Notes: generated by a model from the letters alone, not told the origin. 64,000 nt of DNA from Alphaproteobacteria bacterium (GCA_963422645.2 CAXXVO010000007.1:544001-608000); one strand, 5' to 3'. Positions 12,357 through 53,003 are shown, counted from the stretch's first letter. Made by a program: numbers and translations.

Positions 12357-12506
12357 TGAGCGCGCGCGGTCTTTCAGCGGGGATCGGGGCCTGATCCGCT
12401 CGGATTTGTTGAGGTTTTGGGGCGGGTGCCCCTCGGCGAACTTGCAAGAAGTTCGCCGGGGGGCTTTGTCTCGTGGTGACGGTCACAATCGCCAGAGACG
12501 GCCCCA

Positions 12507-13124
12507 ATGTCGCACAACATTTTCCGCCACTCCATGCTTTGCAACGCCCTGGTCTGGGCCTGGCTGCGCGAGGTCGATGAGGCCGAGGCGGCGCGCTGCC
12601 GCGAGGCGGGCTGCCGACACTGCCCCGGCAAGCTGCACAGCGCGACGTATCCGCGCAAGCCGTACGGTCTGGCAGCCGAGTTGAGGGAAGAGGGCACGCG
12701 GCGGTTCAGCTTCTGCTGCGCGGATTGCCGCCTGCGAGCGACCCCACCATCGGTACGATTCTTCGGGCGCCGCTTTTATCTGGGCGCCCTGTTCGTTCTG
12801 TTGAGTGCACTGGTTCTGAGAGGCGGGGTGCGGTTGCAGACGATCAAGCGGAAGTGGGGGGTCTCGGTCGCCACACTGCGCCGCTGGCGGAAGTGGTGGC
12901 TGGAGGCGTTCCCGGCGACGGAGCCCTGGGGAGCGAAGCGTGGCGAACTGGTGATGCCACCCGAGGAGGTGCCGCTGCTCTTCGTGCTGCGGCAGATGCG
13001 GGGCGGACGCTTCGGTGAGCGTCTGTTCCTGAGCCTGATCTGGTTCAAGCCGTGGACGGGCTATTGCGGGCTCGGCGATGGCTCGGCGCCGCCCGCAGAA
13101 AGTGTTCCTGTCACGCCCGGATAG
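12507..13124 (+). CDS. Transposon accessory protein with putative Zn finger and HTH
   Basis: CRHC...CCADC and GVSVATLRRWR; identical copy at 44961. Confidence 0.75.
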   Translation: MSHNIFRHSMLCNALVWAWLREVDEAEAARCREAGCRHCPGKLHSATYPRKPYGLAAELREEGTRRFSFCCADCRLRATPPSVRFFGRRFYLGALFVLLSALVLRGGVRLQTIKRKWGVSVATLRRWRKWWLEAFPATEPWGAKRGELVMPPEEVPLLFVLRQMRGGRFGERLFLSLIWFKPWTGYCGLGDGSAPPAESVPVTPG

Positions 13125-13173
13125 GGCGTTCTACATGGGCATCTCTCCGATGCGGCGAGGGAGGGATGCCGGA

Positions 13174-14652
13174 ATGGACAAGGACGACGCAGGCGCCAGG
13201 CGCGAGAAGTGGGCCCGGCTGCGCTTTGCGGTGGTGGGGCCGCTTCTGGCTTCACCGCCGCCTGCAGGCCAGCTGGGGGCCGAGTTCGAGCGTCTGTCGC
13301 AGCGCGACTGGGAGCACCCGTCGGGCAAGGGGCCGGTGCGCTTTGCGGCCTCGACGATCGAGCGCTGGTACTACCGGGCGCGGGCAGAGGAGCAGGACCC
13401 GGTCAAGGCGCTGCGCCGGAAGCCTCGGACCGACGTCGGCCGCGAGCGGTCCATGTCGGCGGGGCTGATCGCGGCGCTGCGCGAGCAGTACCGGGTCCAT
13501 CCCTCGTGGGCGGCGCAGCTCCACTACGAGACCCTCAAGGCTCATGTTGCGACCCATCCCGAGCTCGGCCCGATGCCGTCCTACGCGACGCTGACGCGGG
13601 CGATGCGCAATCGCGGCCTGGTGCGCGAGCGCCCCAGGAAGTGGCACGAGGGTGAGGACAAGCCGGCGGTCGAAGCCCGCGAGGTCCTTAGCTACGAGGT
13701 GTCTCGCAGTCACGCGCTGTGGCACGGGGACTTCCACCACGGCAAGCGCCGCGTGCTGACGGCGTCGGGCGAATGGCAGACGCCCATCCTGCTCGGCTTC
13801 CTCGACGACCACTCCAGGCTTGGCTGCCACCTGCAGTGGTACCTGGAGGAGACCGCCGAGGTCTTCGTCCACGGGCTCTGTCAGGCCTTCATGAAGAGGG
13901 ACTTGCCCAGGTCCCTGCTGACCGACAACGGCGGGCCGATGACGGCGGGCGAGGTCGAGGAGGGCTTGCACCGCCTCATCGGCATCGTGGGGGCCACGAC
14001 ACTCGCTTACAGCCCCCATCAAAATGGAAAAATCGAGTCGTTCTGGGGCACGGTCGAGGGCCGCCTGATGGCTCAGCTCGAAGGCGTCGACGCGCTCACC
14101 CTGAAGATGCTCAACGACGCCACCATAGCCTGGCTGGAGCAGGACTACCATCGGCGGGTGCACCGCGAGCTCGGCATGACGCCGCATGAACGCCTCGCCG
14201 GGAGCGTCAAGGCATCGAGGCCCTGCCCCGCCTCGGACGAGCTCAAGGCGGCCTTCCGCATCGCCAGGAAGCGCACGCTCAGGCGCTCGGACGGCACCGT
14301 CTCGGTCGAGGGCATCCGCTACCAGGTGCCACAGCCGTGGCGCCACCTGAGGACGCTCTGGGTCCGCTATGCGCGCTGGGACCTCAGCGGCGTCGATCTG
14401 GTGGAAGGCCGAAGCGGCGAGCGGCTGTGCACGCTGTACCCCCTCGACAAGCGCGGCAACGCCGATGGCGTCCGCCGTCCTGCGAGACCCGGCAGCGACC
14501 ATGGCGGCGCCAGCGCGGGCGTCGGCGAACTTCCGCCGCTGCTCAAGGGCGTGCTCGACGCCCAGGCCGCAACAGGCCTGCCGCCGGCCTGGGTACCCCA
14601 TAACAAGACGCCCGGTCCGGGCGAGGACGACGATCAGGGAGATCCGTCATGA
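13174..14652 (+). CDS. DDE transposase (rve core, Mu/IS481-like, Mu-type C-terminal domain)
   Basis: LWHGDFH, LDDHSR, LTDNGG, QNGKIESFW, HRELGMTP and RSDGTVSVEGIRY motifs. Confidence 0.92.
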   Translation: MDKDDAGARREKWARLRFAVVGPLLASPPPAGQLGAEFERLSQRDWEHPSGKGPVRFAASTIERWYYRARAEEQDPVKALRRKPRTDVGRERSMSAGLIAALREQYRVHPSWAAQLHYETLKAHVATHPELGPMPSYATLTRAMRNRGLVRERPRKWHEGEDKPAVEAREVLSYEVSRSHALWHGDFHHGKRRVLTASGEWQTPILLGFLDDHSRLGCHLQWYLEETAEVFVHGLCQAFMKRDLPRSLLTDNGGPMTAGEVEEGLHRLIGIVGATTLAYSPHQNGKIESFWGTVEGRLMAQLEGVDALTLKMLNDATIAWLEQDYHRRVHRELGMTPHERLAGSVKASRPCPASDELKAAFRIARKRTLRRSDGTVSVEGIRYQVPQPWRHLRTLWVRYARWDLSGVDLVEGRSGERLCTLYPLDKRGNADGVRRPARPGSDHGGASAGVGELPPLLKGVLDAQAATGLPPAWVPHNKTPGPGEDDDQGDPS

Positions 14653-15482
14653 ACCGCGAGCTGCTCACCTTCTACGGGCTCAAATGGAACCCCTTCGCCA
14701 CCGACCTTCCGGTCGACAGCCTCATGGTGAGCCCCGCCGTCGACAGCTTCTGCCTCAGAATCGAGCATCATCTTGTGCGCCAGGGCGGCTTCGCGTTGAT
14801 CGCCGGCGAGCCCGGCACCGGAAAGAGCGTGGCGTTGCGCGTGCTCGCCGACCGCCTCGGCCGCTCGGACGGGCTCAGGGTCTGTGCCATCACCCACCCC
14901 TCTTCCAGGCTGTCCGACTTCTACCGCGAGATCGGCGGGATGTTCGGCGTCGACCTGATGTACAACAACCGCTGGGCCAGCTTCAAAAACCTGCGCGAGC
15001 GATGGCTCACCCATGTCGACGACACCCGCATGCGGCCCGTGGTGCTCATCGACGAGGCCCAGGAGCTGCTGCCCTCGGTGATCTCCGAGATCCGCCTGCT
15101 GGCGTCCACCGACTTCGACTCGCGCGCCATCCTCTCGGTCGTCTTCGCCGGCGACAGCCGCCTGATCGACAGGCTCCGCCAGCCCGACTTGCAGCCCATC
15201 GCCTCGCGCCTGCGCCAGCGCCTGGTCATGACCCAGGCAGACGCCGGCGACCTCGCGGCCCTGCTCGACCATCTGGTCGAGCAGGCCGGCAATCCGGGCC
15301 TCATGAGCGCAGAGCTCAAGGACACCCTGGTCACCCACGCCGGCGGCAACCCCAGGGCGCTTACCGTCATGGGCGACATGCTGCTCGCCGCCGGCGCCGA
15401 GAAGAACCGCGAGGTTCTCGACGAGAAGCTCTTCATGGAGATCCTGGGCGAGCCCGCCAAGCCGAAGAGGGCACGGCGGTGA
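14649..15482 (+). CDS. ExeA-family AAA ATPase (MuB/TnsC-like helper)
   Basis: FYGLKWNPF, GEPGTGKS, VLIDEAQ and GGNPR; start overlaps the transposase stop. Confidence 0.9.
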   Translation: MNRELLTFYGLKWNPFATDLPVDSLMVSPAVDSFCLRIEHHLVRQGGFALIAGEPGTGKSVALRVLADRLGRSDGLRVCAITHPSSRLSDFYREIGGMFGVDLMYNNRWASFKNLRERWLTHVDDTRMRPVVLIDEAQELLPSVISEIRLLASTDFDSRAILSVVFAGDSRLIDRLRQPDLQPIASRLRQRLVMTQADAGDLAALLDHLVEQAGNPGLMSAELKDTLVTHAGGNPRALTVMGDMLLAAGAEKNREVLDEKLFMEILGEPAKPKRARR

Positions 15483-15770
15483 AGGGCTTCCCGACACGGG
15501 CGCCGATGCAGCTCGAGGATCGCCCCCGGGCGCAACAGTGGATGGTGGACACGCTGTGGGCCGAGCAGGCCGTGGGCATCGTCGGCGGCGAGCCCAAGTG
15601 CGGCAAATCCCTGCTCGCGCTCGATCTCGCCGTCGCCGTGGCCACCGGCGTCCCATGCCTGCGCCACTACCGCCCCAGCGCAAGCGGCACCGTGCTGCTC
15701 TTCGCCGCCGAGGACGCCGGCCACAGGGTGCGCAAGCGTCTGCAGGGGATCGCCCGCGCCGCCGCCACCC
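15479..15770 (+). pseudogene. AAA_25/RepA-like helicase, 5' fragment
   Basis: GGEPKCGKS and AAED; identical to the start of 50094..51092; cut by IS21-A. Confidence 0.85.
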
Positions 15771-17404: not shown

Positions 17405-18119
17405 TGTGCTGGAGATGATGACCCAGCTGAAGCTCGCAGGTATGCGCGCCGCTTACGACGACATCCTTGCCGACGGGCTCAAGCGCCGCCATCCGGTGCA
17501 ACAGATCATCGGTACGCTGCTGCAGGTCGAGATCGCCGACAAGAGGGCCCGCTCGATCAAGTACCAGATGGCCTCCGCCAAGCTGCCGACGGTCAAGGAG
17601 CTGGCCGACTTCGACTTCGCCGCCTCGCCGGTCAACGAGCCCCTGATCCAGGAGCTCGCCGGCGGCGGCTTCCTCGAGGGCAAACGCAACATCGTGCTGG
17701 TCGGCGGCACCGGTACCGGCAAGACCCATCTCGCCGTCGCCATCGCGCGGTCCTGCATCCGCAAGGGCGCGCGCGGCCGGTGCTACAACGTCGTCGACCT
17801 GGTCAACCTCCTCGAGGCCGAGCTTCGCGCCGGACGCCAGGGCCGCACTGCAGACCAGCTCGTCCGCCGCGACTTCGTCATCCTCGACGAGCTCGGCTAC
17901 CTGCCCTTCGCCCAGGCCGGTGGGCAGCTGCTCTTCCATCTGATGAGCCGGCTCTACGAGCGCACCTCGATCGTCATCACCACAAACCTCGCCTTCGGCG
18001 AATGGCCATCCGTCTTCGGCGACCCCAAGATGACCACAGCGCTGCTCGATCGCCTCACCCATCATTGCGAGATCATCGAGACCGGCAACGAGAGCTGGCG
18101 CTTCAAGAACCGCTCCTGA
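17391..18119 (+). CDS. istB: IS21 helper ATPase
   Basis: [16 protein letters not shown] and LLDRLTHH motifs. Confidence 0.95.
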
Positions 18120-18145
18120 CCCGCCGCCGGCCTCCCTTGCGGCCC

Positions 18146-18262
18146 GGTTGCCCCGGTGGGCCAACAGGGACCCCCCACGCGGCTTCGCTCCGCGTAGCGC
18201 AGGGCGCCACACGAAGCCGCGCGGGTCCCCCCTATTGGCTACCGGGACAACCTCCGCCGTGC
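18146..18262. repeat. Long imperfect hairpin in the IS21-A 3' non-coding end (also about 52175-52291)
   Basis: GGTTG.CCCGGT..GCCAA.AGGG..CGCGGCTTCG pairs with CGAAGCCGCG..CCCT.TTGGC.ACCGGG.CAACC. Confidence 0.75.
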
Positions 18263-18321
18263 CACTCAGGGGGGTCAATTTTGCACGCCGATCGGGGGTC
18301 AGTATTGAAAGCCGATTGACA

Positions 18322-39564: not shown

Positions 39565-40446
39565 TCAGGCGCGGTCGGGACCGGGGCGGGCGCCGGGGCG
39601 GCACGGGCGTTCGAGTTCGGCCTTCCACCATTCGGGGTCTTCGACGGCGCGTTCTGCGGCGTCGTATCCGTCGTGACCGGTCCATCTTCCGGGGTCGGCG
39701 TCGGCGTACCATCGGCCTGCGCCGCGGTGTCGTTCGAGGGCGTCGTCGATGCGGGCGATCCCGTCCGCCGGGCGTCCCCGGCAGAAGCGCTCGAAGAAGG
39801 CGTTGAGGCGGCATCGGGGGCAGCGTCCGCAGGGCTCTGCCGCGACGGTGCATCGCCAGGTGAGCGCCTCCAGCCCGGGCGGGAGCAGGGCCTGGAGCAT
39901 GAAGCGCCCGGCGACGGGTCCGAAGGGGTCGTCCCGCGACGGCGGCCACTGCGCGCCGTCCTCCCAGCCGGGGAAGAAGGGGAGTTCCATGGGGACGGCG
40001 GTGCGCGCGCGGTAGGCCGGATGCCAGTACATGCGGTGCATGTCGTCGGCGGTGTCCCACGAGGTGATGCCGAGCATCACCCGGTCGGCGCGGTGCCGTT
40101 CGGCCTCGTCGGCGTGGGTTGCGTACCGGTCGAGGCCCCAGGGACCGAAGGTGGGGTCGCAGACGCCCTCCCACCCTCTCCCGTCCCTGATCGGGTATCC
40201 GGCGCCGGCGTCGAGGTCGAGGCGCAGGGCGTCGCGCGACACGTGGCGCACGGGCCGGACGTTGCGGGAAAGCCAGTCTGCGACGGCCTCGCTTGCGGCC
40301 TGCCCGCGGGCGATGCGCTCCGGCAGCTCGCGGGCGGGTTCGCGGTAGCAGGAGAGGACGACCTCGTCTTCGGTCTCGCGCAGGACGAGGAGGGCGAGGG
40401 CGGTGCTGTCGATGCCGCCGCCTGCGGGGACGAGGGTGCGGCGCAT
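39565..40446 (-). CDS. QueC-like PP-loop ATP pyrophosphatase
   Basis: N-terminal GGGIDS PP-loop variant and C-terminal WRC-x6-CGRCPRC Zn motif. Confidence 0.7.
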   Translation of the reverse strand: MRRTLVPAGGGIDSTALALLVLRETEDEVVLSCYREPARELPERIARGQAASEAVADWLSRNVRPVRHVSRDALRLDLDAGAGYPIRDGRGWEGVCDPTFGPWGLDRYATHADEAERHRADRVMLGITSWDTADDMHRMYWHPAYRARTAVPMELPFFPGWEDGAQWPPSRDDPFGPVAGRFMLQALLPPGLEALTWRCTVAAEPCGRCPRCRLNAFFERFCRGRPADGIARIDDALERHRGAGRWYADADPGRWTGHDGYDAAERAVEDPEWWKAELERPCRPGARPGPDRA

Positions 40447-40451
40447 CGCGA

Positions 40452-41222
40452 TCAGCCCCACTCGATGACGATATAGCCGGCGGAGACCGGGGAGGGCACG
40501 GTGAGCTGGGTGTGGCGGCTGACGCCGCTTGCGCCGGCGGGGGCGGAGGAGGTTCCGTCTGCGCCGTCTGCGCCGTTGCGTCGGCCATACGCTCTCTTGC
40601 CGCCCTTGCCGCCGCGCGCCGTGCCGCCGAGGACGGCGGTGTTGCTGCCGTCGCCGCCGTCCCTCAATCGCGCTCCGTCCACGCCGTTGTCTCCCACGGT
40701 CAAGCTGTAGGAGGTGCCCGGCGAGACCGCGATCTCGAAGTAGATGAAGCCGCCTTCGCCGCCGTCGCCGCCCGTCCAGCTGATCGGCGCGGCGCCCCTG
40801 TTGTATTCGAAGCCGCTATCGCCGGCGCCGTCGCCGCCGTCGCCGCCCCGCAACTGCACGCGCACGCGGGTCACGCCCGCGGGCGCGCGCCAGTACCCGG
40901 AGCCGGGCGAGGTGAAGGTCTTGCGCCCGCGCGGCGTTGGCCGGGGCGCGGGCTCGGGCCCGGGACGCGGCGGCGCCGTGCGCTCGCTGAGGTTGGCCAG
41001 CCGCGTGCGCTCGGCGGCGGTGAATACCTCGCCCCGCATCTGGCGGAAGGGGTGCAGGCCGGAGCCGTCGAGGGTGGCGACGCCGTTCGGATCGCCGAAG
41101 GCGTCGATCATGGCGTTGATTGTGTCGGCCATGGCCTTGATGGCGGCGCGGGCGTGGGCGGGCGAATCGCTGCCCTGGTCGAGGTGGGTGGTGTCGATCT
41201 TCCGGGTGGGCCATGCGGTCAT
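40452..41222 (-). CDS. Phage tail-fibre-like glycine-rich protein, paralog 2
   Basis: NGVATLDGSG, FTSPG..PAGVTRVRV..GG, VSPGTSYSLTVG and GYIVIEW. Confidence 0.7.
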   Translation of the reverse strand: MTAWPTRKIDTTHLDQGSDSPAHARAAIKAMADTINAMIDAFGDPNGVATLDGSGLHPFRQMRGEVFTAAERTRLANLSERTAPPRPGPEPAPRPTPRGRKTFTSPGSGYWRAPAGVTRVRVQLRGGDGGDGAGDSGFEYNRGAAPISWTGGDGGEGGFIYFEIAVSPGTSYSLTVGDNGVDGARLRDGGDGSNTAVLGGTARGGKGGKRAYGRRNGADGADGTSSAPAGASGVSRHTQLTVPSPVSAGYIVIEWG

Positions 41223-41243
41223 GGGGTTTCCTTTCGTGATCGC

Positions 41244-41375
41244 TCAGCGCGGCGGAGCGGCGATCCGGGCGCGGTAGCAGGAGAGGACGACCTCGTCGTC
41301 GGTCTCGCGCAGGACGAGGAGGGCGAGGGCGGTGCTGTCGATGCCGCCGCCTGCGGGGACGAGGGTGCGGCGCAT
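41244..41375 (-). pseudogene. Chimeric junction ORF: first 35 codons of the QueC-like gene plus the tail of the upstream gene
   Basis: MRRTLVPAGGGIDS...SCYR then ARIAAPPR*, compared with ARAHIAAPAS* at 42170. Confidence 0.75.
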
Positions 41376-41380
41376 CGCGA

Positions 41381-42148
41381 TCAGCCCCACTCGACGACGA
41401 CATAGCCGGCGGAGACCGGGGAGGGCACGACGAGCTGGACCTGCTTGCTCGAGTTGCTCACACTCGACATGAAGGGGGCGTAGGAGTTTCCGTCTGCGCC
41501 GTCTGCGCCGTTGCGGTTGTATTGCGCTCTCTTGCCGCCCTTGCCGCCGTACGCCTTGCCGTAGAGGAAGGTGGTGTCGCCGCCGTCGGCGCCGTCCCTG
41601 CCGCGCGCTCCGTTCGCTCCGTTGCCTCCAACGATGACGGGGTAGGTCCCGCCCGCCCTGACCGCGATATCGAAGTAGATGAATCCGCCGCCGCCGCCCT
41701 CGCCGCCACGCCAGGTGGTGGTCCTCGAGTCGCCCCTGCCGCTGACGGTGCGGCTATAGTCGCTGCCGTCGCCGCCGCTGCCGCCCTGCAACTGCGTGCG
41801 CACGCGGGTCACGCCCGAGGGCACCTTGAAGTAGAATGTCCCGGGCGTGGTGAAGGTCTTCCGCCCGCGCGGCGTGGGCGTGGGCGCGGGACGCGGCGGC
41901 GGCGTGGTCTCGCTGAGGTTGGCCAGCCGCGTGCGCTCGGACGCGGTGAACACCTCGCCCCGCATCTGGCGGAAGGGGTGCTCGCCGCCGTCGTCGAGGG
42001 TGGCAACGCCGCCCGGATCGCCGGCGGCGTCGATCATGGCGTTCAGGGTGTCGGCCATGGCCTTGATGGCGGCCCGGGCGTGGGCGGGCGAATCGCTGTC
42101 CTGGTCGAGGTGGGTGGTGTCGATCTTCCGGGTGGGCCATGCGGTCAT
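41381..42148 (-). CDS. Phage tail-fibre-like glycine-rich protein, paralog 1
   Basis: First ~80 aa near-identical to 40452..41222; Gly-rich C-terminal domain diverged. Confidence 0.7.
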   Translation of the reverse strand: MTAWPTRKIDTTHLDQDSDSPAHARAAIKAMADTLNAMIDAAGDPGGVATLDDGGEHPFRQMRGEVFTASERTRLANLSETTPPPRPAPTPTPRGRKTFTTPGTFYFKVPSGVTRVRTQLQGGSGGDGSDYSRTVSGRGDSRTTTWRGGEGGGGGFIYFDIAVRAGGTYPVIVGGNGANGARGRDGADGGDTTFLYGKAYGGKGGKRAQYNRNGADGADGNSYAPFMSSVSNSSKQVQLVVPSPVSAGYVVVEWG

Positions 42149-42169
42149 GGGGTTTCCTTTCGCGCCCAC

Positions 42170-42441: not shown

Positions 42442-42560
42442 TGTTGTTAAGCGTGGAAAAGTGACCCCCTATTGGGGGTGATCGGCGTCCAAAATTGACC
42501 CCCTTGGATTTGTGTCCATGAACACACCTCGTCGTTTGGACGGACGGGGTGGTGGGGGAG

Positions 42561-44075
42561 ATGCTGGTTGTGGAAACGATCGCGAAGATCCGTCGGGATC
42601 ATCTGGTGAAGGGCGTTCCGATCAAGAAGCTCGCCCGGGATTTGAGGGTTTCCAAGAACACGATACGCAAGGTGGTGCGGGGCGATGCGACCTCGCACAG
42701 CTACGAGCGCAAGATCCAGCCGATGCCGAAGCTTGGGCTGTGGGTGGAGGAGCTTGAGCGCCAGCTGAAGGCCAACGAGAAGAAGGCACGCAAGGATCGG
42801 CTGTCTCTTCTGCGGATTCATGAAGACCTTGTGTCGCTGGGCTACAAGGGCGGCTATGACGCGGTTCGCCGCTATGCCAGGGCCTGGCGGCGCCGGTGGC
42901 GGCTGTTGTCGCCGGCGCAGGCCTATGTGCCGCTGATCTTCGATCCCGGCGAGGCCTACCAGTTCGACTGGAGCCACGAGTACGCGCGTCTGTCGGGCGC
43001 GACGACCAGGGTGAAGGCGGCGCACATGCGGCTGTGCCACAGCCGGATGTATCTGGTCCAGATCTTTCCCCGCGAGAGCCAGGAGATGGTCTTCGAGGCG
43101 CACGAGCGTGCCTTCCGCTTCTTCGGCGGGGTCTGCCGGCGGGGCATCTACGACAACATGAAGACGGCGGTGAGCACGATCTTCGTGGGCAAGAAGCGGG
43201 ACTACAACCGCCGCTTCCAGGAGCTGTGCTCGCACCATCTGGTGGAGCCTGTGGCGTGCACGCCAGGGGCTGGCTGGGAGAAGGGGCAGGTCGAGAAGCA
43301 GGTGGGTGACCTTCGCGGCCGCCTGTTCGTGCCCATCCCGCGGGGCCGCTCCTACGCCGAGATCAACGAGTGGCTGATGGATCGGTGCATCGAGGACGCC
43401 AAGAAGCATCCGCATCCGACAATCCCGGGCAAGACGGTGTGGCAGGTGTTCGAGGAGGAGCAGCCCTTCCTGATGGCGTATCGCGGCCCCTTCGACGGCT
43501 TCCATGCCAGCGAGGTGTCGGTCTCGAAGACCTGTCTGGTGCGCTTCGACAACAACCAGTACAGCGTCGCGGCCCGCGCCGTCGGCCGGCCGGTGGACGT
43601 GCGGGCCTATGCCGATCGGATCGTCATCCGCCAGGACGGCGAGACCGTTGCCGAGCACCCCCGCAGCTTCGGGCGCGGCCGGTTCGTCTACGATCCGTGG
43701 CATTACGTGCCGATCCTGACGCGGAAGCCCGGCGCGCTACGCAATGGCGCGCCCTTCAAGGACTGGCAGTTGCCCAACGCGCTCGGCCGCCTGCGAACCC
43801 GGCTCGCGGGCCACGACGACGGCGACCGGCAGTTCGTCAAGGTGCTCGCGGCGGTGCTGGAGGACGGACTGGAGGCGGTTGAGGCGGCCTGTGCCGAGAC
43901 GCTCGACTGCGGTGCCTGCAGCGCCGACGTGGTGCTCAACATCCTCGCCCGGCAGCGCCAGCCGGCACCGCCGGCAATCATCCCGACGCCCGAGGGCCTG
44001 CAGCTTCGCCACAAGCCGGTAGCCGACTGTCAGCGCTACGACAGCCTGAGGGAGGCCGGTCATGGAGCGTCATGA
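42561..44075 (+). CDS. istA: IS21 transposase
   Basis: Same protein as 15890..17404. Confidence 0.95.
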
Positions 44076-44790
44076 TGTGCTGGAGATGATGACCCAGCTG
44101 AAGCTCGCAGGTATGCGCGCCGCTTACGACGACATCCTTGCCGACGGGCTCAAGCGCCGCCATCCGGTGCAACAGATCATCGGTACGCTGCTGCAGGTCG
44201 AGATCGCCGACAAGAGGGCCCGCTCGATCAAGTACCAGATGGCCTCCGCCAAGCTGCCGACGGTCAAGGAGCTGGCCGACTTCGACTTCGCCGCCTCGCC
44301 GGTCAACGAGCCCCTGATCCAGGAGCTCGCCGGCGGCGGCTTCCTCGAGGGCAAACGCAACATCGTGCTGGTCGGCGGCACCGGTACCGGCAAGACCCAT
44401 CTCGCCGTCGCCATCGCGCGGTCCTGCATCCGCAAGGGCGCGCGCGGCCGGTGCTACAACGTCGTCGACCTGGTCAACCTCCTCGAGGCCGAGCTTCGCG
44501 CCGGACGCCAGGGCCGCACTGCAGACCAGCTCGTCCGCCGCGACTTCGTCATCCTCGACGAGCTCGGCTACCTGCCCTTCGCCCAGGCCGGTGGGCAGCT
44601 GCTCTTCCATCTGATGAGCCGGCTCTACGAGCGCACCTCGATCGTCATCACCACAAACCTCGCCTTCGGCGAATGGCCATCCGTCTTCGGCGACCCCAAG
44701 ATGACCACAGCGCTGCTCGATCGCCTCACCCATCATTGCGAGATCATCGAGACCGGCAACGAGAGCTGGCGCTTCAAGAACCGCTCCTGA
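44062..44790 (+). CDS. istB: IS21 helper ATPase
   Basis: Same protein as 17391..18119. Confidence 0.95.
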
Positions 44791-44960
44791 CCCGCCGCCG
44801 GCCTCCCTTGTGAGCGCGCGCGGTCTTTCAGCGGGGATCGGGGCCTGATCCGCTCGGATTTGTTGAGGTTTTGGGGCGGGTGCCCCTCGGCGAACTTGCA
44901 AGAAGTTCGCCGGGGGGCTTTGTCTCGTGGTGACGGTCACAATCGCCAGAGACGGCCCCA

Positions 44961-45578
44961 ATGTCGCACAACATTTTCCGCCACTCCATGCTTTGCAACG
45001 CCCTGGTCTGGGCCTGGCTGCGCGAGGTCGATGAGGCCGAGGCGGCGCGCTGCCGCGAGGCGGGCTGCCGACACTGCCCCGGCAAGCTGCACAGCGCGAC
45101 GTATCCGCGCAAGCCGTACGGTCTGGCAGCCGAGTTGAGGGAAGAGGGCACGCGGCGGTTCAGCTTCTGCTGCGCGGATTGCCGCCTGCGAGCGACCCCA
45201 CCATCGGTACGATTCTTCGGGCGCCGCTTTTATCTGGGCGCCCTGTTCGTTCTGTTGAGTGCACTGGTTCTGAGAGGCGGGGTGCGGTTGCAGACGATCA
45301 AGCGGAAGTGGGGGGTCTCGGTCGCCACACTGCGCCGCTGGCGGAAGTGGTGGCTGGAGGCGTTCCCGGCGACGGAGCCCTGGGGAGCGAAGCGTGGCGA
45401 ACTGGTGATGCCACCCGAGGAGGTGCCGCTGCTCTTCGTGCTGCGGCAGATGCGGGGCGGACGCTTCGGTGAGCGTCTGTTCCTGAGCCTGATCTGGTTC
45501 AAGCCGTGGACGGGCTATTGCGGGCTCGGCGATGGCTCGGCGCCGCCCGCAGAAAGTGTTCCTGTCACGCCCGGATAG
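44961..45578 (+). CDS. Transposon accessory Zn-finger/HTH protein
   Basis: Same protein as 12507..13124. Confidence 0.75.
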   Translation: MSHNIFRHSMLCNALVWAWLREVDEAEAARCREAGCRHCPGKLHSATYPRKPYGLAAELREEGTRRFSFCCADCRLRATPPSVRFFGRRFYLGALFVLLSALVLRGGVRLQTIKRKWGVSVATLRRWRKWWLEAFPATEPWGAKRGELVMPPEEVPLLFVLRQMRGGRFGERLFLSLIWFKPWTGYCGLGDGSAPPAESVPVTPG

Positions 45579-45627
45579 GGCGTTCTACATGGGCATCTCT
45601 CCGATGCGGCGAGGGAGGGATGCCGGA

Positions 45628-47104
45628 ATGGACAAGGACGACGCGGGCGCCAGGCGCGAGAAGTGGGCCCGGCTGCGCTTTGCGGTGGTGGGGCCGCTTC
45701 TGGCTTCACCGCCGCCTGCAGGCCAGCTGGGGGCCGAGTTCGAGCGTCTGTCGCAGCGCGACTGGGAGCACCCGTCGGGCAAGGGGCCGGTGCGCTTTGC
45801 GGCCTCGACGATCGAGCGCTGGTACTACCGGGCGCGGGCAGAGGAGCAGGACCCGGTCAAGGCGCTGCGCCGGAAGCCTCGGACCGACGTCGGCCGCGAG
45901 CGGTCCATGTCGGCGGGGCTGATCGCGGCGCTGCGCGAGCAGTACCGGGTCCATCCCTCGTGGGCGGCGCAGCTCCACTACGAGACCCTCAAGGCTCATG
46001 TTGCGACCCATCCCGAGCTCGGCCCGATGCCGTCCTACGCGACGCTGAGCGCGGGCGATGCGCAATCGCGGCCTGGTGCGCGAGCGCCCCAGGAAGTGGC
46101 ACGAGGGTGAGGACAAGCCGGCGGTCGAAGCCCGCGAGGTCCTTAGCTACGAGGTGTCTCGCAGTCACGCGCTGTGGCACGGGGACTTCCACCACGGCAA
46201 GCGCCGCGTGCTGACGGCGTCGGGCGAATGGCAGACGCCCATCCTGCTCGGCTTCCTCGACGACCACTCCAGGCTTGGCTGCCACCTGCAGTGGTACCTG
46301 GAGGAGACCGCCGAGGTCTTCGTCCACGGGCTCTGTCAGGCCTTCATGAAGAGGGACTTGCCCAGGTCCCTGCTGACCGACAACGGCGGGCCGATGACGG
46401 CGGGCGAGGTCGAGGAGGGCTTGCACCGCCTCGGCATCGTGGGGGCCACGACACTCGCTTACAGCCCCCATCAAAATGGAAAAATCGAGTCGTTCTGGGG
46501 CACGGTCGAGGGCCGCCTGATGGCTCAGCTCGAAGGCGTCGACGCGCTCACCCTGAAGATGCTCAACGACGCCACCATAGCCTGGCTGGAGCAGGACTAC
46601 CATCGGCGGGTGCACCGCGAGCTCGGCATGACGCCGCATGAACGCCTCGCCGGGAGCGTCAAGGCATCGAGGCCCTGCCCCGCCTCGGACGAGCTCAAGG
46701 CGGCCTTCCGCATCGCCAGGAAGCGCACGCTCAGGCGCTCGGACGGCACCGTCTCGGTCGAGGGCATCCGCTACCAGGTGCCACAGCCGTGGCGCCACCT
46801 GAGGACGCTCTGGGTCCGCTATGCGCGCTGGGACCTCAGCGGCGTCGATCTGGTGGAAGGCCGAAGCGGCGAGCGGCTGTGCACGCTGTACCCCCTCGAC
46901 AAGCGCGGCAACGCCGATGGCGTCCGCCGTCCTGCGAGACCCGGCAGCGACCATGGCGGCGCCAGCGCGGGCGTCGGCGAACTTCCGCCGCTGCTCAAGG
47001 GCGTGCTCGACGCCCAGGCCGCAACAGGCCTGCCGCCGGCCTGGGTACCCCATAACAAGACGCCCGGTCCGGGCGAGGACGACGATCAGGGAGATCCGTC
47101 ATGA
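45628..47104 (+). pseudogene. Mu/IS481-like DDE transposase with +1 frameshift near 46049
   Basis: CTGAGCGCGG here versus CTGACGCGG in copy 1. Confidence 0.88.
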
Positions 47105-47888
47105 ACCGCGAGCTGCTCACCTTCTACGGGCTCAAATGGAACCCCTTCGCCACCGACCTTCCGGTCGACAGCCTCATGGTGAGCCCCGCCGTCGACAGCT
47201 TCTGCCTCAGAATCGAGCATCATCTTGTGCGCCAGGGCGGCTTCGCGTTGATCGCCGGCGAGCCCGGCACCGGAAAGAGCGTGGCGTTGCGCGTGCTCGC
47301 CGACCGCCTCGGCCGCTCGGACGGGCTCAGGGTCTGTGCCATCACCCACCCCTCTTCCAGGCTGTCCGACTTCTACCGCGAGATCGGCGGGATGTTCGGC
47401 GTCGACCTGATGTACAACAACCGCTGGGCCAGCTTCAAAAACCTGCGCGAGCGATGGCTCACCCATGTCGACGACACCCGCATGCGGCCCGTGGTGCTCA
47501 TCGACGAGGCCCAGGAGCTGCTGCCCTCGGTGATCTCCGAGATCCGCCTGCTGGCGTCCACCGACTTCGACTCGCGCGCCATCCTCTCGGTCGTCTTCGC
47601 CGGCGACAGCCGCCTGATCGACAGGCTCCGCCAGCCCGACTTGCAGCCCATCGCCTCGCGCCTGCGCCAGCGCCTGGTCATGACCCAGGCAGACGCCGGC
47701 GACCTCGCGGCCCTGCTCGACCATCTGGTCGAGCAGGCCGGCAATCCGGGCCTCATGAGCGCAGAGCTCAAGGACACCCTGGTCACCCACGCCGGCGGCA
47801 ACCCCAGGGCGCTTACCGTCATGGGCGACATGCTGCTCGCCGCCGGCGCCGAGAAGAACCGCGAGGTTCTCGACGAGAAGCTCTTCAT
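47101..47888 (+). CDS. ExeA-family ATPase; last codons displaced to 50048-50097 by IS1634
   Basis: Identical to copy 1 up to EKLF. Confidence 0.85.
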
Positions 47889-50047
47889 CCCAGGTTGGCA
47901 CTTTTTGTGTTCTGCTGTCGTTTATCGCTTTGATATGGCGCAATATTTTTCTCTGCCGATTCCAACATGGCACTACATTTTGTGAGATTCTGTCAGCTCG
48001 TCAGGCGGGTCCTCGTGCGGTGGATGGCGGGGTCAACACCCGCCGCCGAGGAGATTTGGGCGACCTCGGCGGCCGGGCGCGTGTCCTGGCGGTTGACGAT
48101 CAAGGTGCCGTCGGTCTGGCGCAGTCGCGTGGTGATCCGCACCCAGGTCCGCATGCCCTCGCGGATCGATGCCCAGCACTTGTGGATGCCCCGCGCGGCC
48201 AGTCGGGTACGGATCAGATGCACGGCGTGATAGGCCAGCACGGCGATCAGCAGGTGGGCCGCGATGCGACGGTCGAGCTGGTGCCAGATCGGGCGAAGGC
48301 CGAGCTCGGATTTCAGGCTGCGGAAGGTGGCCTCGATGTCGGTGATGCGCCAGTAGGTCCGCAGGATCGTCTCGATATCCCAGTCGACGTGGCTGGTGCG
48401 CAGCACATAGGCGCCGGCGCCCTCGTCGGCCTCGTCGTATTGCGGCCTGCGCTTGAAGCGCACGGCGGCGGCGTTGGGGCCGGTTTTCGCCTTCTCGACC
48501 GTGACCTCGTAGTGTCTGGCGACGGTGGAGAAGCGCTGCTTGAGACGGCCAATGCTCTCCAGCACCCTGTCGTAGCGCTTGAGGCGGCCCTTGACCGGCA
48601 GGCCGCTATGGAGCCTTTCCAGCGCCGCCTCGAAGCGGTTCCGCCTGAGGCCGATGATCGCGTTCTCGGCCTTCTTCTTGCCCTCGCTGACGACGTAGAG
48701 CCGCGCCTCGCCGTCCTCGCTGGCAAGCCGCCAGGCGCGCACCTCGTGCCGCGCGCTGGTGATCAGCAGAGCCTCGGGCCCGCCCTCGGGCAGCGGCGGC
48801 CTGGCGCCGCGGCTGACCGCGATCCAGTCGTAGCCCTGCTCGCCCAGCCACGCGACGTTCTCCTCGGTGGCGATGCCCGCGTCCATGACCACCGTGGGCT
48901 TCGGCGCCGTGCCGCCGCACACCGCCTCGAGCCTGACCAGCGCGTCCTCCAGCGTGCCCGGCTCGCTCACGTTGCCCGGCAGGATCTCGCAACTGCGCGG
49001 GAAGCCTGCGCCGTCGAGCGCCAGCGCCAGCGTGATCAGCGGACAGTCGTCGCGCTTCTGCTTGGAGCGCCCGAACCTGGGAAGCTGGCCGTGGGTGTGG
49101 CCGTGGTAGTGGACATTGGTGAGATCGTAAAAGGCGATCGTTTCGGGCAGGTCGAGCAGCGCGCGCTCGCGGTTGAACAGCTCCCGCTGAATGGCGGCCC
49201 GGTGGCGCCAGAGCAGGTCGCCGATGCGGTAGAGCGTCTTGCGCCGCAGCGCCTTGCGGTCGCCCTCCAGCCCCAGGAGCTCGGCGGTCGCGCTGTCGCG
49301 GCGCAGCCAGCGGCTGGTGTCACGCTCGCTGGCGGGATGGACCATCCTGGCGACGATCAGCGCGCTGGCGATGCGCCCGTCGCGGCCCTTGATATCGAGG
49401 CCGTGGAGGATGTCGGCGAAGCCGAGGTCGTCGAGGGCCTTGAGGCACAGGCGCTCGCAGCCGACCGTGCGCGGGTTCTCGTGCTCCAGGGTATCGAGGT
49501 CGACGGTGGCGATGTCGGGCTTGCGCGCCTCTTCCTGTATCGCCTCGGGGCGGAACCCCCTGGCCCTGAGCTTGGCGACGATGTCCTCGGCTGCGGCCTG
49601 CACGTCCGGCGCGGCTTCGAGCAGCGGCGGGCGGCCGTTGAGCAGCGCCTCGGCGAGTCCGGCAACTTCGCGCCATTTCTCCTTCGGCACCGGATAGTCG
49701 GTGCCGAGGTTGAGAAGCGTGCGCTGCCTGACCTTGTCGCCGATGCGCTGCGAGAGCACGAGGCGATGGCTGCGGACCGGCTTGCCTTCGGTAGTGTGGG
49801 TCTTGGTTGCCCTGATGAACATGTCGCCCGGCACGTTTTGGTCGTGGCGGGTTCAGATATGTCGGCTTTGGTGGTGGGGTCAAGGGAAATCCTGCAAACC
49901 CACCATTCCCTGGCACTACAAAGGGAGTTCGAGACGGCAATCGCAAATGTAGGGGCGTGCCCTTCTCGTCAACGCTATATCTGGTGTGTCAGCCGGAAAA
50001 ACCTGGCCAATTCGGCCCCGAACAAACGGAAAAAGTGCCAACTTGGG
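47889..50047 (-). mobile_element. IS1634-family element
   Basis: IRs CCCAGGTTGGCACTTTT and AAAAGTGCCAACTTGGG; 4-bp TSD TCAT. Confidence 0.92.
47993..49822 (-). CDS. IS1634 transposase
   Basis: QRTLLNLG, YDLTN, FGRSKQKRDD, VMDAG and IEATFRSLKSELGLRPIWH. Confidence 0.93.
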   Translation of the reverse strand: MFIRATKTHTTEGKPVRSHRLVLSQRIGDKVRQRTLLNLGTDYPVPKEKWREVAGLAEALLNGRPPLLEAAPDVQAAAEDIVAKLRARGFRPEAIQEEARKPDIATVDLDTLEHENPRTVGCERLCLKALDDLGFADILHGLDIKGRDGRIASALIVARMVHPASERDTSRWLRRDSATAELLGLEGDRKALRRKTLYRIGDLLWRHRAAIQRELFNRERALLDLPETIAFYDLTNVHYHGHTHGQLPRFGRSKQKRDDCPLITLALALDGAGFPRSCEILPGNVSEPGTLEDALVRLEAVCGGTAPKPTVVMDAGIATEENVAWLGEQGYDWIAVSRGARPPLPEGGPEALLITSARHEVRAWRLASEDGEARLYVVSEGKKKAENAIIGLRRNRFEAALERLHSGLPVKGRLKRYDRVLESIGRLKQRFSTVARHYEVTVEKAKTGPNAAAVRFKRRPQYDEADEGAGAYVLRTSHVDWDIETILRTYWRITDIEATFRSLKSELGLRPIWHQLDRRIAAHLLIAVLAYHAVHLIRTRLAARGIHKCWASIREGMRTWVRITTRLRQTDGTLIVNRQDTRPAAEVAQISSAAGVDPAIHRTRTRLTS

Positions 50048-50093
50048 TCATGGAGATCCTGGGCGAGCCCGCCAAGCCGAAGAGGGCACGGCG

Positions 50094-51092
50094 GTGAAGG
50101 GCTTCCCGACACGGGCGCCGATGCAGCTCGAGGATCGCCCCCGGGCGCAACAGTGGATGGTGGACACGCTGTGGGCCGAGCAGGCCGTGGGCATCGTCGG
50201 CGGCGAGCCCAAGTGCGGCAAATCCCTGCTCGCGCTCGATCTCGCCGTCGCCGTGGCCACCGGCGTCCCATGCCTGCGCCACTACCGCCCCAGCGCAAGC
50301 GGCACCGTGCTGCTCTTCGCCGCCGAGGACGCCGGCCACAGGGTGCGCAAGCGTCTGCAGGGGATCGCCCGCGCCGCCGCCACCCCCTTCGACGAACTCG
50401 ACATCGCCGTCATCGACGTGCCCACCCTGCGTCTCGACCAGCGCATCGACCGTCAGCGCCTGCAGGAGACCGTGGAGCGCATCGAACCGCGCCTCCTGAT
50501 CCTCGATCCCCTGGTCCGCCTGCACAGCGTCGACGAGAACGCCGTCGCAGAGATCGCCCCCATCCTCGGCTTCCTGCGCGAACTGCAGCGCCGCTTCGAA
50601 ACCGCCGTCCTCCTCGTCCACCACGCCCGCAAGAGCGGCGGCACCCGGCCGGGGCAGGCCCTGCGCGGGAGCAGCGAGCTGCACGCTTGGGGTGACTCAA
50701 ATCTGTACCTGCGCCGGCGCGACAAGAAGATCGTCATGACGGTCGAGCAGCGCGACGCCCGGGGCCTCAACGACATCGAGCTGGAACTCGTCGACGGCGG
50801 ACATGGGCCGGCCTTCCGTCTGCACCAGGACGCGGCAGATGAAGACAGGCACGAGCCCGCCACCGTCGAGCAGCGCGTCTTCAAGGCGATCGAGCAGGCC
50901 GAAAAGCCGCTCTCGAAAGCCCAGATCCGCTCACGCGCCGCTGCCCGCAACGCCACCGTCGTTGCCGCCATCGAGAGCCTCACCAGGGAGGGGCGCATCG
51001 AACGGGCGCCCAGGGGTGGCTATCGCCTCGCAGCCGCCGAGGCGCACCGGGAGCCGCAATCCCCTGCCGCCATCAACGGAAGTGCGGGATGA
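50094..51092 (+). CDS. AAA_25/RepA-like (SF4-type) helicase with probable C-terminal winged helix
   Basis: GGEPKCGKS, AAED, LLILDP, DEN, LVHHARK and RGSS; GTG overlaps the ATPase stop. Confidence 0.88.
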   Translation: MKGFPTRAPMQLEDRPRAQQWMVDTLWAEQAVGIVGGEPKCGKSLLALDLAVAVATGVPCLRHYRPSASGTVLLFAAEDAGHRVRKRLQGIARAAATPFDELDIAVIDVPTLRLDQRIDRQRLQETVERIEPRLLILDPLVRLHSVDENAVAEIAPILGFLRELQRRFETAVLLVHHARKSGGTRPGQALRGSSELHAWGDSNLYLRRRDKKIVMTVEQRDARGLNDIELELVDGGHGPAFRLHQDAADEDRHEPATVEQRVFKAIEQAEKPLSKAQIRSRAAARNATVVAAIESLTREGRIERAPRGGYRLAAAEAHREPQSPAAINGSAG

Positions 51093-51153
51093 GGCGTTCC
51101 CGTTCCCGTTCCCGGAACTCTTAAGCGTTGAAGGGTACAGGAACGGGAACGCC
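51093..51153. repeat. 14-bp perfect inverted repeat with GTTCCC x3 (putative origin)
   Basis: GGCGTTCCCGTTCC (51093) and GGAACGGGAACGCC (ending 51153), between the helicase and primase genes. Confidence 0.8.
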
Positions 51154-51194
51154 GTCAGCCTCCCTTCCAAGCAGACCTTCGCCGGGACCCGGCA

Positions 51195-52064
51195 ATGAGC
51201 GGCGGCGATCCCCTGGCCACCTGCCGCAACATCCCCCTCGACCGGGTCGCCGCCGCCCTCGGCTACCGCAGAGACCCGACCGACCGGGCGCGCTTCAAGC
51301 GCGGGGGCTCGGTCATCAGCATCAACGGCGAGAAGTTCTTCGATCACCTGCGCGGCACGGGAGGGGGTGGCGCCATCGACCTCGTCATCCATGCGACGGG
51401 ATGCCGCTTCCCGGAAGCCCTCCGCTTCCTCGGAAGCCATGAGGGGCGGAGGGAGATCACCACCATCCCAGCCGCCCCGCGACGCCTGCGGCTGCCAAGG
51501 CCCAGTCCCCGCGCCTGGCCCAGGGTCCGGGACGCCCTCATCCGCCAACGCGCTATCGGCACCGACGTGCTCGAAGCCTGCCACGGCCGAGGCCTCCTCT
51601 ACGCCGATGACAGGATCAACGCCGTCTTCATCTGCCGAAACGCCAGCGGGCACACGACCGGCGCCGAGATCCTCGGCACCGCGCCGCAGCCCGGAACAAA
51701 ACGCTTCAGGGGCATGGCCCCGGGATCGCGCAAGGCGCGTGGCGGCTTCTGGCTCCACTGCGACCGAAACCAGCCCGCCCTCGTCATCCTCACCGAGAGC
51801 GCCGTCGACGCCATCTCTGCACGAAGCCTGCGCGTCGAGGGGACGCGCGAGAACGGCGCCGTCGTCGCCTCAACCGCCGGCATCGCCAGCTCGGTCCCGC
51901 CCTGGATCAAGGAGTGGAAGCCACGTCGCATCGTCTGTGCCTACGACGCAGACAGCGCCGGCGACACTGCCGCCGAGCATCTCGTGCTCAACGATCCAAG
52001 GGTGAAAAGGTTGCGCCCACGACACGCCAAGGACTGGAACGAGATGCTCCTGCGGTCTCGATGA
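51195..52064 (+). CDS. Primase-like protein (DUF3991/Toprim)
   Basis: GGGGAIDLV, LTESAVDAIS, CAYDADSAG (Toprim E and DxD) and KDWNE. Confidence 0.85.
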   Translation: MSGGDPLATCRNIPLDRVAAALGYRRDPTDRARFKRGGSVISINGEKFFDHLRGTGGGGAIDLVIHATGCRFPEALRFLGSHEGRREITTIPAAPRRLRLPRPSPRAWPRVRDALIRQRAIGTDVLEACHGRGLLYADDRINAVFICRNASGHTTGAEILGTAPQPGTKRFRGMAPGSRKARGGFWLHCDRNQPALVILTESAVDAISARSLRVEGTRENGAVVASTAGIASSVPPWIKEWKPRRIVCAYDADSAGDTAAEHLVLNDPRVKRLRPRHAKDWNEMLLRSR

Positions 52065-52350
52065 AAGCCAGGCCACTCACCGCTCTCGCAGATCAACCAA
52101 GCGCCGCATCACGAACATCAAATAATCCGAAAACCGCACCATCAAATGCTGGGCGCACGCTCACCTTGCGGCCCGGTTGCCCCGGTGGGCCAACAGGGAC
52201 CCCCCACGCGGCTTCGCTCCGCGTAGCGCAGGGCGCCACACGAAGCCGCGCGGGTCCCCCCTATTGGCTACCGGGACAACCTCCGCCGTGCCACTCAGGG
52301 GGGTCAATTTTGCACGCCGATCGGGGGTCAGTATTGAAAGCCGATTGACA

Positions 52351-53003
52351 CCATGGACGCCCCCGTCAACGCCGCCATGCGCCTCGATGCCCCCGACTTC
52401 CGCATCGCCGCCGTCCTGCCCCGGGTCGACACCCGCCAGCTCCTCGCCATGCGATCCTTCCTCACCGACAGGATGAAGGACGTCTCCGCCGCCCTCGCAG
52501 ACCGCGTCAACACCCAGATCGGCCTCGCCATGACCGGCTCGGTCCCCGTCGGCGAGACCACCGGCCGCGTCGCCGCCATCCTCAAGACCGGCGGCAGGTC
52601 CCGCGCCCTGACAATCGTGCGGACCGAGCTCGGCCGCGCATACTCCATGGCCGGACAGCAGCGCATGGAGCAGGCCGCCGGGATCCTGCCGGGGCTGAGG
52701 AAGCAGTGGCGACGCTCCGGAAAGCTCAGAAGCCGCATCGCCCACGACGCCGTCGACGGACAGACCAGGGAAGCCGCCAGGCCCTTCGACGTCGGCGGCG
52801 CCACGCTCATGTACCCCCGCGATCCCGCCGGACCCGCCGCCGAGACGATCAACTGCGGATGCCAGTCGCTGCCATGGATGGAAAGCTGGGAGGTCGAGAA
52901 CCCCGGGCGAAAGCCGTTCTCCGACGAGGAGATCGCACGCGACCCGCGGCGCGCCGATCTCGAAGGGAAGGAGGCCGGCGCGGGGACAACGCCGGCATCG
53001 TAG
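52351..53003 (+). pseudogene. Phage head morphogenesis protein (Mu gpF/SPP1 gp7-like), 5'-truncated
   Basis: RALTIVRTE, KQW, R..H..VDGQ, LMYPRDP and ETINCGC. Confidence 0.85.

Follow-up and report, generated by a model that had tools for sequence, protein, structure and literature searches.

An extended Tn6049-family transposon with a RepA-type helicase gene, an iteron block and a primase gene: a candidate for self-replication

Introduction

Can a bacterial DDE transposon carry part of the machinery that replicates it? The question is raised by a stretch of 64,000 nucleotides from an alphaproteobacterium (GCA_963422645.2, CAXXVO010000007.1:544001-608000; the whole stretch is referred to here as the window, and coordinates are counted from its first letter). 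An earlier note, made from this DNA alone, had described a Mu-type transposon in the window with its own helicase and primase genes and had proposed that it might replicate itself. For replicative transposons, Mu among them, full reliance on the replication-restart proteins of the host is the accepted view. Here, we discuss an element whose core, comprising orf1, the transposase and the ATPase, is by homology that of the Tn6049 family of Cupriavidus metallidurans. The helicase appears to be an old part of the element that acts with a dedicated DNA site, while the primase is accessory. We lean, by a modest amount, towards the reading that a replication-initiation module was added to a Tn6049-family transposon and drives the element's own replication. 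Judged from the sequence, self-replication of the element is plausible.

The helicase and its gene

The element carries five co-oriented genes. As the earlier note had described, intact copies have stop and start codons that overlap at two junctions: between transposase and ATPase, and between ATPase and helicase, where the ATPase stop and the GTG start of the helicase gene share GTGA (50094-50097). The helicase and primase genes both lie between the element ends and hence within the mobile unit. The helicase matches AAA_25 (3.5e-36), and its best match in the PDB is RSF1010 RepA (1g8y), at 8e-9 when the sequence was searched alone and at 9.7e-15 with a profile of 30 sequences. In these 30 sequences the Walker A motif GGEPKxxKS, the acidic residues E78/D79, the Walker B residue D138, H176/H177 and R207/R208 are invariant; we take these positions to parallel the catalytic residues of RepA. 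The C-terminal 60-70 residues match winged-helix domains (~1e-3). Sequence and profile matches together with the motifs suggest that the protein is plausibly a replicative helicase of the RepA (RSF1010) type, predicted to form a hexamer and to unwind DNA. Homologs are numerous: scanning all 1.84 billion representatives gave 452 clusters at E up to 1e-30. Among longer relatives, fusions to the DnaB N-terminal (DnaB_N) or the DnaA N-terminal (DnaA_N) domain occur, and relatives of ~40% identity are present on viral (phage) contigs, in one case next to genes for terminase and portal proteins. Both observations support a replicative role.

To place the helicase within the family, one genome per prokaryote species was scanned, which gave 472 confirmed relatives, and the best 80 loci were kept. 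In 14 of these the contig ends too early for the presence of the helicase to be evaluated. Among the remaining 66, the helicase gene directly follows the ATPase gene in 56, while 10 lack it despite having room. Across the 26 elements in which all three genes are complete, the pairwise distances of helicase and transposase correlate with r=0.89, a value reached by none of 2000 permutations, and those of ATPase and transposase with r=0.96. Moreover, the mean divergence is equal for transposase, ATPase and helicase (0.38-0.39). This co-divergence argues that the helicase is an old, co-inherited part of the element. Outside the family close homologs are rare: 72,556 plasmids gave two weak matches, and a close homolog (45% identity) was found in one of 400 other genomes of the same class and in none of three genomes of the same family. 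The earlier note had allowed that the helicase and primase might be sporadic cargo of transposase-ATPase modules. With its regular presence, its co-divergence and a cis site of its own (see below), the helicase is integral to the element and not sporadic cargo. The primase is accessory and was gained at least twice.

The iteron block behind the helicase gene

Directly after the helicase stop codon lies a block in which opposed sets of hexamers are placed ~20 nt apart. Using a search pattern of three tandem G-G-x-A-A-x units, in an interval reaching from 60 nt upstream to 400 nt downstream of the helicase end, such a block was recovered in 30 of the 33 distinct loci that have a helicase and at least 150 bp of room, and in none of the 20 loci without a helicase. 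In 505 kb of locus sequence, 43 of 44 pattern matches fall behind the helicase gene, and in this genome 24 of 25 are the element's own. A 14-pair inverted repeat is kept in 13 aligned examples, with compensatory changes in 7 of the 14 pairs, and one sub-clade retains a single arm only. Together, these features make a protein-binding iteron more likely than a mere hairpin. A terminator was also considered and ruled out, since a T tail is missing and the loop spans ~20 nt.

The iteron type tracks a single residue of the helicase winged helix, which lies in its predicted recognition helix. Iterons of the type GGGAAC go with Arg-Asn in five of five elements, GGTAAC with Arg-Pro or Arg-Thr in four of four, and GGAAAC with Arg-Ala in one of one in the close clade, while GGAAGC goes with a different helix (12 elements). 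A further contrast is provided by the loci L012 and L017, which are sisters on the transposase tree (support 99) and yet are unlike in both iteron and helix. The N-domain of the L017 helicase is closest to L021 (92%), whereas its C-domain is closest to L011 (83%, vs 55% to L021). This combination suggests that the winged helix and the iterons were exchanged together, which is what a specific protein-DNA pair predicts. The circumstantial case, from sequence comparison, for a specific pairing between winged helix and iterons is thus strong, and the phylogenetic contrasts that it draws on are few.

The primase and the IS21-like elements that share it

The primase gene, whose stop codon lies 99 nt short of the right end of the element as the earlier note had it, encodes a putative DnaG-type primase with matches to DUF3991 (1.7e-10) and Toprim_2 (3.3e-9). 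A profile of 17 sequences matched only the catalytic core of E. coli DnaG in the PDB, and weakly (E 0.04-0.09). The Toprim Glu E201 as well as D205, D251, D257 and D280 are invariant in these sequences, and D253, the second Asp of the DxD motif, is present in 16 of the 17; conserved zinc-finger cysteines were not found in their N-terminal parts. Close homologs (74-94% identity) make up ~70 protein clusters, while plasmid homologs (30-38%) are mostly found in genes annotated as MobV relaxases or DUF3991/Toprim proteins.

When metagenome contigs were scanned with the primase profile, only three of the 80 loci obtained were Tn6049-like, and in 60 the primase gene lies directly behind istB of an IS21-like element. 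The full layout of the latter, seen in 30 of the 60 on ~5-kb contigs, consists of a small open reading frame (ORF), a gene for a ParB-HTH/KorB-like protein (HTH, helix-turn-helix), istA, istB and the primase gene. These IS21-like primase elements (L128-L202, e.g., L129:313-4709) occur in many metagenomes, and no description of them was found in the full-text literature. On the primase tree (FastTree), the query forms one clade with L019, L021, L123 and L028, and the primases of L156 and L158 are nested among those of the IS21 type. The two placements imply at least two acquisitions of a primase by the Tn6049 family. Since primases of this type were repeatedly acquired by transposons that pair a DDE transposase with an AAA+ ATPase, priming arguably helps such transposition.

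Relationship to Tn6049

The earlier note did not recognize a named family; here the core proved homologous to that of Tn6049. In a translated search of plasmids, the transposase is 47.7% identical, over 95% of the query, to the copy on pMOL28 (C. metallidurans CH34, pMOL28 and pMOL30), and the Tn6049 homologs of the ATPase (49.6% identity), directly downstream of it, and of orf1 (41.4%), upstream, are arranged in the same order. According to the cited excerpts, Tn6049 is 3.5 kb long, is present in 12 copies in C. metallidurans CH34 and has an ATPase gene referred to as "gspA" (PMC2864759), and the copy carried by a Pseudomonas plasmid is bounded by imperfect terminal repeats of 12 bp, with a direct repeat of 4 bp (PMC4739549). 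The three-gene, 3.5-kb layout is not that of our element, which measures 5189-5192 bp and has five genes; it is for this reason filed as an extended variant of the family. The core family is thus known, if barely studied, and the versions with helicase, iterons and primase appear to be undescribed. In the full-text literature no helicase-, iteron- or primase-bearing relative of Tn6049 was found described, with ISfinder, TnCentral and paper supplements outside the scope of this search.

Three proteins make up the family core: a DDE transposase resembling that of Mu, a target ATPase of the AAA_22 type and a small protein with a zinc ribbon and an HTH. Their genes lie between TG/CA ends, and insertion produces duplications of 4-5 bp. 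The assignment as a Mu-type transposon was also that of the earlier note and is borne out by the transposase, in which the triad D218/D283/E320 is invariant (15 sequences) and which matches the Mu-type family phrog_310 of PHROG (1e-33); its rve match (1.8e-6) is below the Pfam cut-off. The open frame here encodes 523-524 residues and most relatives have ~491, and the start is therefore probably Met33. RefSeq labels the Tn6049 transposase as IS481 family, a label that we do not adopt for the present element: its transposase scores 109.9 bits against an NCBIfam cut-off of 224, and the element has five genes and is not a single-gene insertion sequence (IS). The ATPase (277 aa) matches AAA_22 (7.7e-19), the "DNA transposition protein" family phrog_296 (6e-19) and the PADLOC model "mad8" (1.3e-8). 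In orf1, four invariant Cys residues are arranged as two CxxC pairs, and an HTH_23-type helix-turn-helix is present in 19 of 29 members; it has no sequence match in the PDB. For orf1 the Atlas pointed to clusters with DUF6431, while Pfam scans of the 29 members gave HTH families only, so DUF6431 stays a lead. Domain scans of the five ORFs revealed no resolvase, TnsA, TniQ/TnsD, relaxase, capsid or polymerase domain, in keeping with the earlier statement that resolvase, capsid and relaxase genes are missing.

All of the 80 best loci come from metagenome-assembled or uncultured genomes that are assigned to many phyla, and the family is abundant in metagenome assemblies from soil, water and sponges. 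The ATPase is present in all 80 and orf1 in 74. A strict rule for terminal repeats (at least 10 of 14 matches) failed in most relatives, as their repeats agree poorly beyond 6 nt, and exact boundaries rest on multi-copy genomes only. Elements with four genes measure 4384 bp in OZ224045 (duplications of 4-6 bp in eight of eight copies) and 4354 bp in OZ220705 (5 bp in four of four). A five-gene element of 5160 bp, with a primase of 47% identity, is found in OZ219747 (5 bp in two of two), and a three-gene element of 3267 bp without helicase in CAWHYG (duplication in one of three). In all four genomes one side of the element reads TGAGCG or TAAGCG and the opposite side CGCTCA or ACTCA, with a second conserved motif ~17-27 nt inside. 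The transposase tree has 58 rows (57 related loci, with the pMOL28 copy within), after 7 loci with stops in the match and 17 same-genome duplicates were dropped. Helicase-bearing elements fall into several of its clades and helicase-less ones, including Tn6049, into others. Near-identical transposases (end branches 0-0.024) occur across phyla or classes in two sets of loci (L064, L081 and L083; L041 and L045), to be explained by transfer in the very recent past or else by repeat contigs that were mis-binned. In Tn6049 (L091:7396-7611) and the helicase-less loci L080, L086 and L043, a small ORF after the ATPase gene occupies the place of the helicase; our reading of the DNA is that the products share a similar acidic and aromatic stretch.

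Copies in the genome and recent activity

The genome assembly (5.9 Mb, 23 contigs) contains 23 left and 26 right ends of the element, and each position of the element is represented by 20-26 copies that are 99.6-100% identical. The element thus accounts for ~2% of the genome (~24 copies of 5.19 kb). Eight copies are uninterrupted (5189-5192 bp). All five frames are open in six of them; in one of the other two the primase is shortened, and in the last the transposase is frameshifted. Together with four copies that carry a nested IS, 12 copies are complete; three have a 5-bp and two a 4-bp duplication. The flanks of copies without a duplication were cross-matched, and the 2-3 five-base matches found, against ~1 expected by our estimate, are not significant. 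Insertions of the element into the helicase gene of another copy are seen at G000 C3:162385-166181 and C6:430794-436755, which makes strong target immunity unlikely. Another copy (G000 C19:9476-16827) has a 613-aa ORF of the nested IS1634 kind (see below) at a different position.

Assembled contigs of public runs were compared with the intact copy at G000 C8:135589-140777 (L122, G000 C8:135089-141277). A run from 2015 with the same organism label has an empty site, in which the joint skips 5193 bases with 4 shared bases, and a run from 2023 has both filled junctions. The G000 C8 copy is hence an insertion polymorphism, and the 4-bp duplications are real. Collectively, these data identify a recently active, multi-copy transposon, and the recent movement that the earlier note had deduced is confirmed. 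Of the runs listed as containing this DNA, none is registered as RNA, and for three low-share runs an RNA origin is only a guess.

The element copies in the window

Features of the window are listed in Table 1. The copy described in the earlier note (copy 2) begins at 44811 with TGAGCGCGCGC and, read on the other strand from 52163, ends with TGAGCGTGCGC, which agree at 10 of 11 bases. The TG...CA ends, their 11-bp repeats and the exact CCTTG duplication that the note had listed thus stood up. A second copy of the TTxAxxGG-type motif lies ~45 nt inside the left end. As for the length of 5.2 kb, this applies only once an insertion is taken out, as the interval itself spans 7353 bp. The nested IS1634-family insertion (2159 bp; NCBIfam match 5.4e-76) has a 613-aa transposase, imperfect 18-bp terminal repeats and a 4-bp duplication, TCAT. 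It sits between the ATPase and helicase genes and has displaced the last 16 ATPase codons, and without it and one TCAT copy 2 measures 5190 bp. The transposase gene of copy 2 is also split by an extra G at 46049.

Window self-comparison places copy 2 within the right end of an IS21-family element of 2550 bp, for which IstA and IstB were confirmed and of which the window has two copies, one intact (15771-18320) and one split by copy 2 (42442-44810 and 52164-52350). The intact one reads through a single CCTTG, which proves that copy 2 inserted precisely into the split one with a 5-bp duplication and that the duplication is not due to chance. A second near-identical copy had been reported at 12357; it is indeed 99.8% identical to copy 2, but only its left 3414 bp are present, as it is cut at 15770 by the intact IS21-family element. 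The sequence beyond that element is not the remainder of copy 1, and a deletion or rearrangement must be assumed. Both copies in the window are non-functional.

Other features of the surroundings were recorded. The left end of copy 1 lies within a gene with a DUF6444 domain (11675-12394). Just upstream of the split IS21 copy, positions 40341-42167 hold two tandem units of ~930 bp that are 74-97% identical (repeat families D6, D7, D9 and D10). The ORF at 52353-53003, adjoining the right end of the split IS21 copy, matches Phage_Mu_F weakly (3.4e-6, under the cut-off). The surrounding region may be prophage-derived.

Table 1. Positions in the window of the two element copies, their genes and associated sites.
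Feature	Position	Strand	Remarks
Element copy 2 (7353 bp): 5190-bp Tn6049-family transposon plus nested IS	44811..52163	+	Ends, duplication and empty site
Target duplication CCTTG, left copy	44806..44810	unstranded	
Target duplication CCTTG, right copy	52164-52168	unstranded	
Unoccupied target, single CCTTG	18135..18139	unstranded	In the uninterrupted IS21 copy
Left terminal inverted repeat	44811..44838	+	Bipartite: TGAGCG, ~10 nt, TTxAxxGG-type motif
Right terminal inverted repeat	52136..52163	-	
Terminator-like hairpin in left end, upstream of orf1	44882..44918	+	Equivalent: L122 572-608
orf1, 205 aa, zinc ribbon and HTH_23	44961..45578	+	
DDE (rve) transposase	45532..47104	+	Frameshifted here; intact (523-524 aa) in copy 1 at 13078-14652
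AAA_22 (MuB/ExeA-like) ATPase	47101..47888	+	Last 16 codons at 50048-50097
Nested IS1634-family IS, foreign to the element	47889..50047	-	Transposase 47993-49834, minus strand; TCAT duplication
RepA(RSF1010)-type hexameric-helicase homolog (AAA_25), 332 aa, with C-terminal winged helix	50094..51092	+	
Iteron/inverted repeat: three tandem hexamers facing two, conserved spacer	51093..51153	unstranded	Candidate helicase binding site or origin
DnaG-type primase homolog (DUF3991 and Toprim_2), 289 aa	51195..52064	+	
Element copy 1, left 3414 bp only	12357..15770	+	orf1, transposase and ATPase intact, plus first 292 bp of helicase

Proposed mechanism and alternatives

In the model that we propose, the transposase would nick the 3' ends only and join them to a target with a 5-bp stagger, since the element has no TnsA-like second nuclease. 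Mu and Tn5053 form a branched strand-transfer product that needs replication, and relatives of IS3 and IS481 copy out as a circle. As no second nuclease acts on the 5' ends, a branched product of the Mu or Tn5053 kind would be expected. This intermediate, or a copied-out circle, would then require replication. The C-terminal winged helix of the helicase would recognize the hexamer iterons directly behind its gene; the helicase, tethered in this way to element DNA, would load on forks or on an origin-like site. The element's primase would start lagging-strand synthesis with a borrowed host polymerase, and the host restart primosome would be dispensable. Loading on forks at the strand-transfer intermediate is a route that we propose tentatively, while we consider it rather unlikely that the iteron site serves to replicate an excised or episomal copy.

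Several observations weigh against replication driven by the element itself. Helicase-less relatives with three genes multiply, namely Tn6049 (12 copies) and the 3267-bp element (L065/L066/L068), hence the replication genes are not needed for transposition as such. The primase is present in only five of the 80 relative loci and its match to DnaG is weak, and the five ORFs include neither a DNA polymerase gene nor a separate initiator gene. Seven of the 12 complete copies lack a duplication, which fits intramolecular replicative events and recombination between copies equally. The earlier note had suggested looking for right-end-to-left-end joints and for excess coverage, and neither search returned a clear signal. 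No joint was found in four runs, which were represented by assembled contigs, and in the single run of raw reads (X21) no read aligned; contigs drop rare forms, and the result is hence no evidence against circles. None of 141 contigs of 9 kb or less has terminal overlaps, that is, none is circular. In run X1 the word depth of the element is ~246 and that of the flank 9.9, and the ratio (~25x) equals the assembled copy number of 20-26. For run X3, which is older and has the site empty, the depths are ~457 and 8.8, a ratio of ~52; the excess could reflect more copies in the culture, bias or free copies.

The last point bears on the view of the element as primarily an integrating replicon of small size (a satellite or "transposable plasmid") that is free and circular for part of the time, with the DDE machinery serving only for entry into and exit from chromosomes. 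The depth in X3 would suit such a replicon, as would a rep gene beside iterons, which is a typical plasmid layout, a primase type that is common on mobilizable plasmids and often found inside MobV relaxase genes, and the many metagenome contigs of ~5.2 kb with close homologs of the primase. However, contigs of this size are expected where repeats collapse in assemblies, integrated copies alone explain the depth in X1, circular contigs and end-to-end joints did not appear among the assembled contigs, and partition, relaxase and polymerase genes are missing from the five ORFs. We regard a part-time replicon as unlikely.

Another possibility is that the helicase serves transposition itself, through remodeling or disassembly of the transpososome, choice of targets (e.g., forks or single-stranded DNA) or regulation via the iterons, with the primase as a dispensable add-on. 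In this scenario, the module would modulate rather than enable transposition, which agrees with the transposition of helicase-less relatives, and the iteron block, inside the element near its right end, occupies a possible place for a regulator or enhancer. Other two-component transposons also use extra ATPases or selectors, such as TnsD/E in Tn7 and TniQ in Tn5053. The nearest solved relative of the protein, however, is a replicative helicase, and its relatives carry DnaB_N or DnaA_N and occur in phage genomes. Moreover, a primase was recruited beside the helicase at least twice, which points to priming on unwound DNA. A role confined to transposition is thus improbable in our judgment. The helicase and primase are very unlikely to be passengers with a host-level role (anti-phage defense, or the remnant of a captured plasmid), a reading whose defense version we rejected after comparison with PADLOC: the Toprim part of the primase matches the "RTasDnaG-like" model (3e-9) and, in the cited excerpt, transposons often bear defense cargo that includes pairs of a Toprim nuclease and a helicase (PMC8649781), but neither protein has another PADLOC match under E 0.005, the helicase diverged in step and at an equal rate with the transposase, a dedicated cis site covaries with it, and the element is compact, with stop codons that overlap the next start.

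Implications

If the favored reading of a replication-initiation module is correct, the element, with its own helicase, loading site and primase, would represent a missing link between transposons and plasmids. To our knowledge, it would also be the first transposon of the bacterial DDE kind to carry part of a replisome. It is conceivable, though we hold this with some reserve, that the element belongs to a widespread class of bacterial DDE transposons that have an origin-like site of their own and an initiator helicase that reads it, in some cases with a primase, and so build their own primosome on the transposition intermediate or on a copied-out circle. In that case, replicative transposition would be independent of the host restart machinery and portable across phyla, and the same primase on IS21-like elements would mean that the solution arose more than once. 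The compact size of 5.2 kb with six intact copies and the natural three-, four- and five-gene versions, together with the predicted code that links iterons and helix residues, make the claim testable.

Comparison with known systems

The closest known relative is Tn6049, which shares homologous orf1, transposase and "gspA"/ExeA-like ATPase genes in the same order, short terminal repeats and multiple copies. It has no helicase, iteron block or primase, carries a 72-aa ORF after the ATPase gene instead, and differs in its end sequences.

Elements of the Mu/Tn552/Tn5053/Tn7 class rely on host replication. They resemble the present element in having an rve DDE transposase with an ATPase partner, TG/CA ends, a 5-bp duplication and repeated end motifs. 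Unlike them, it has no TnsA, TniQ/TnsD or resolvase gene among its five ORFs, and it carries a helicase, the candidate binding site of this helicase and a primase.

The replicon of RSF1010 (IncQ) consists of the RepA helicase, the RepB' primase, RepC and oriV. Its RepA is the best solved match of the element's helicase, and both systems have a separate primase gene as well as iterons and an inverted repeat by the replication genes. In contrast to RSF1010, the element's primase is of the DnaG/Toprim and not the RepB' type, a RepC-like initiator is missing, the helicase has a winged helix of its own and the iterons are triplets of 6-7 bp.

Self-synthesizing transposons, that is, casposons and Polintons, are likewise mobile elements with part of their own replication machinery, as set out in the cited excerpt (PMC4779613). 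They bring a DNA polymerase of their own and integrate by means of Cas1 or an integrase of the retroviral type, whereas our element encodes only a helicase and a primase.

Finally, the IS21-like primase elements belong to another transposase/ATPase family and have a ParB/KorB-like gene instead of a helicase gene. They nevertheless match the present element in combining a DDE transposase with an AAA+ ATPase (IstA/IstB), in their size of ~5 kb and in carrying the same type of primase at the 3' end.

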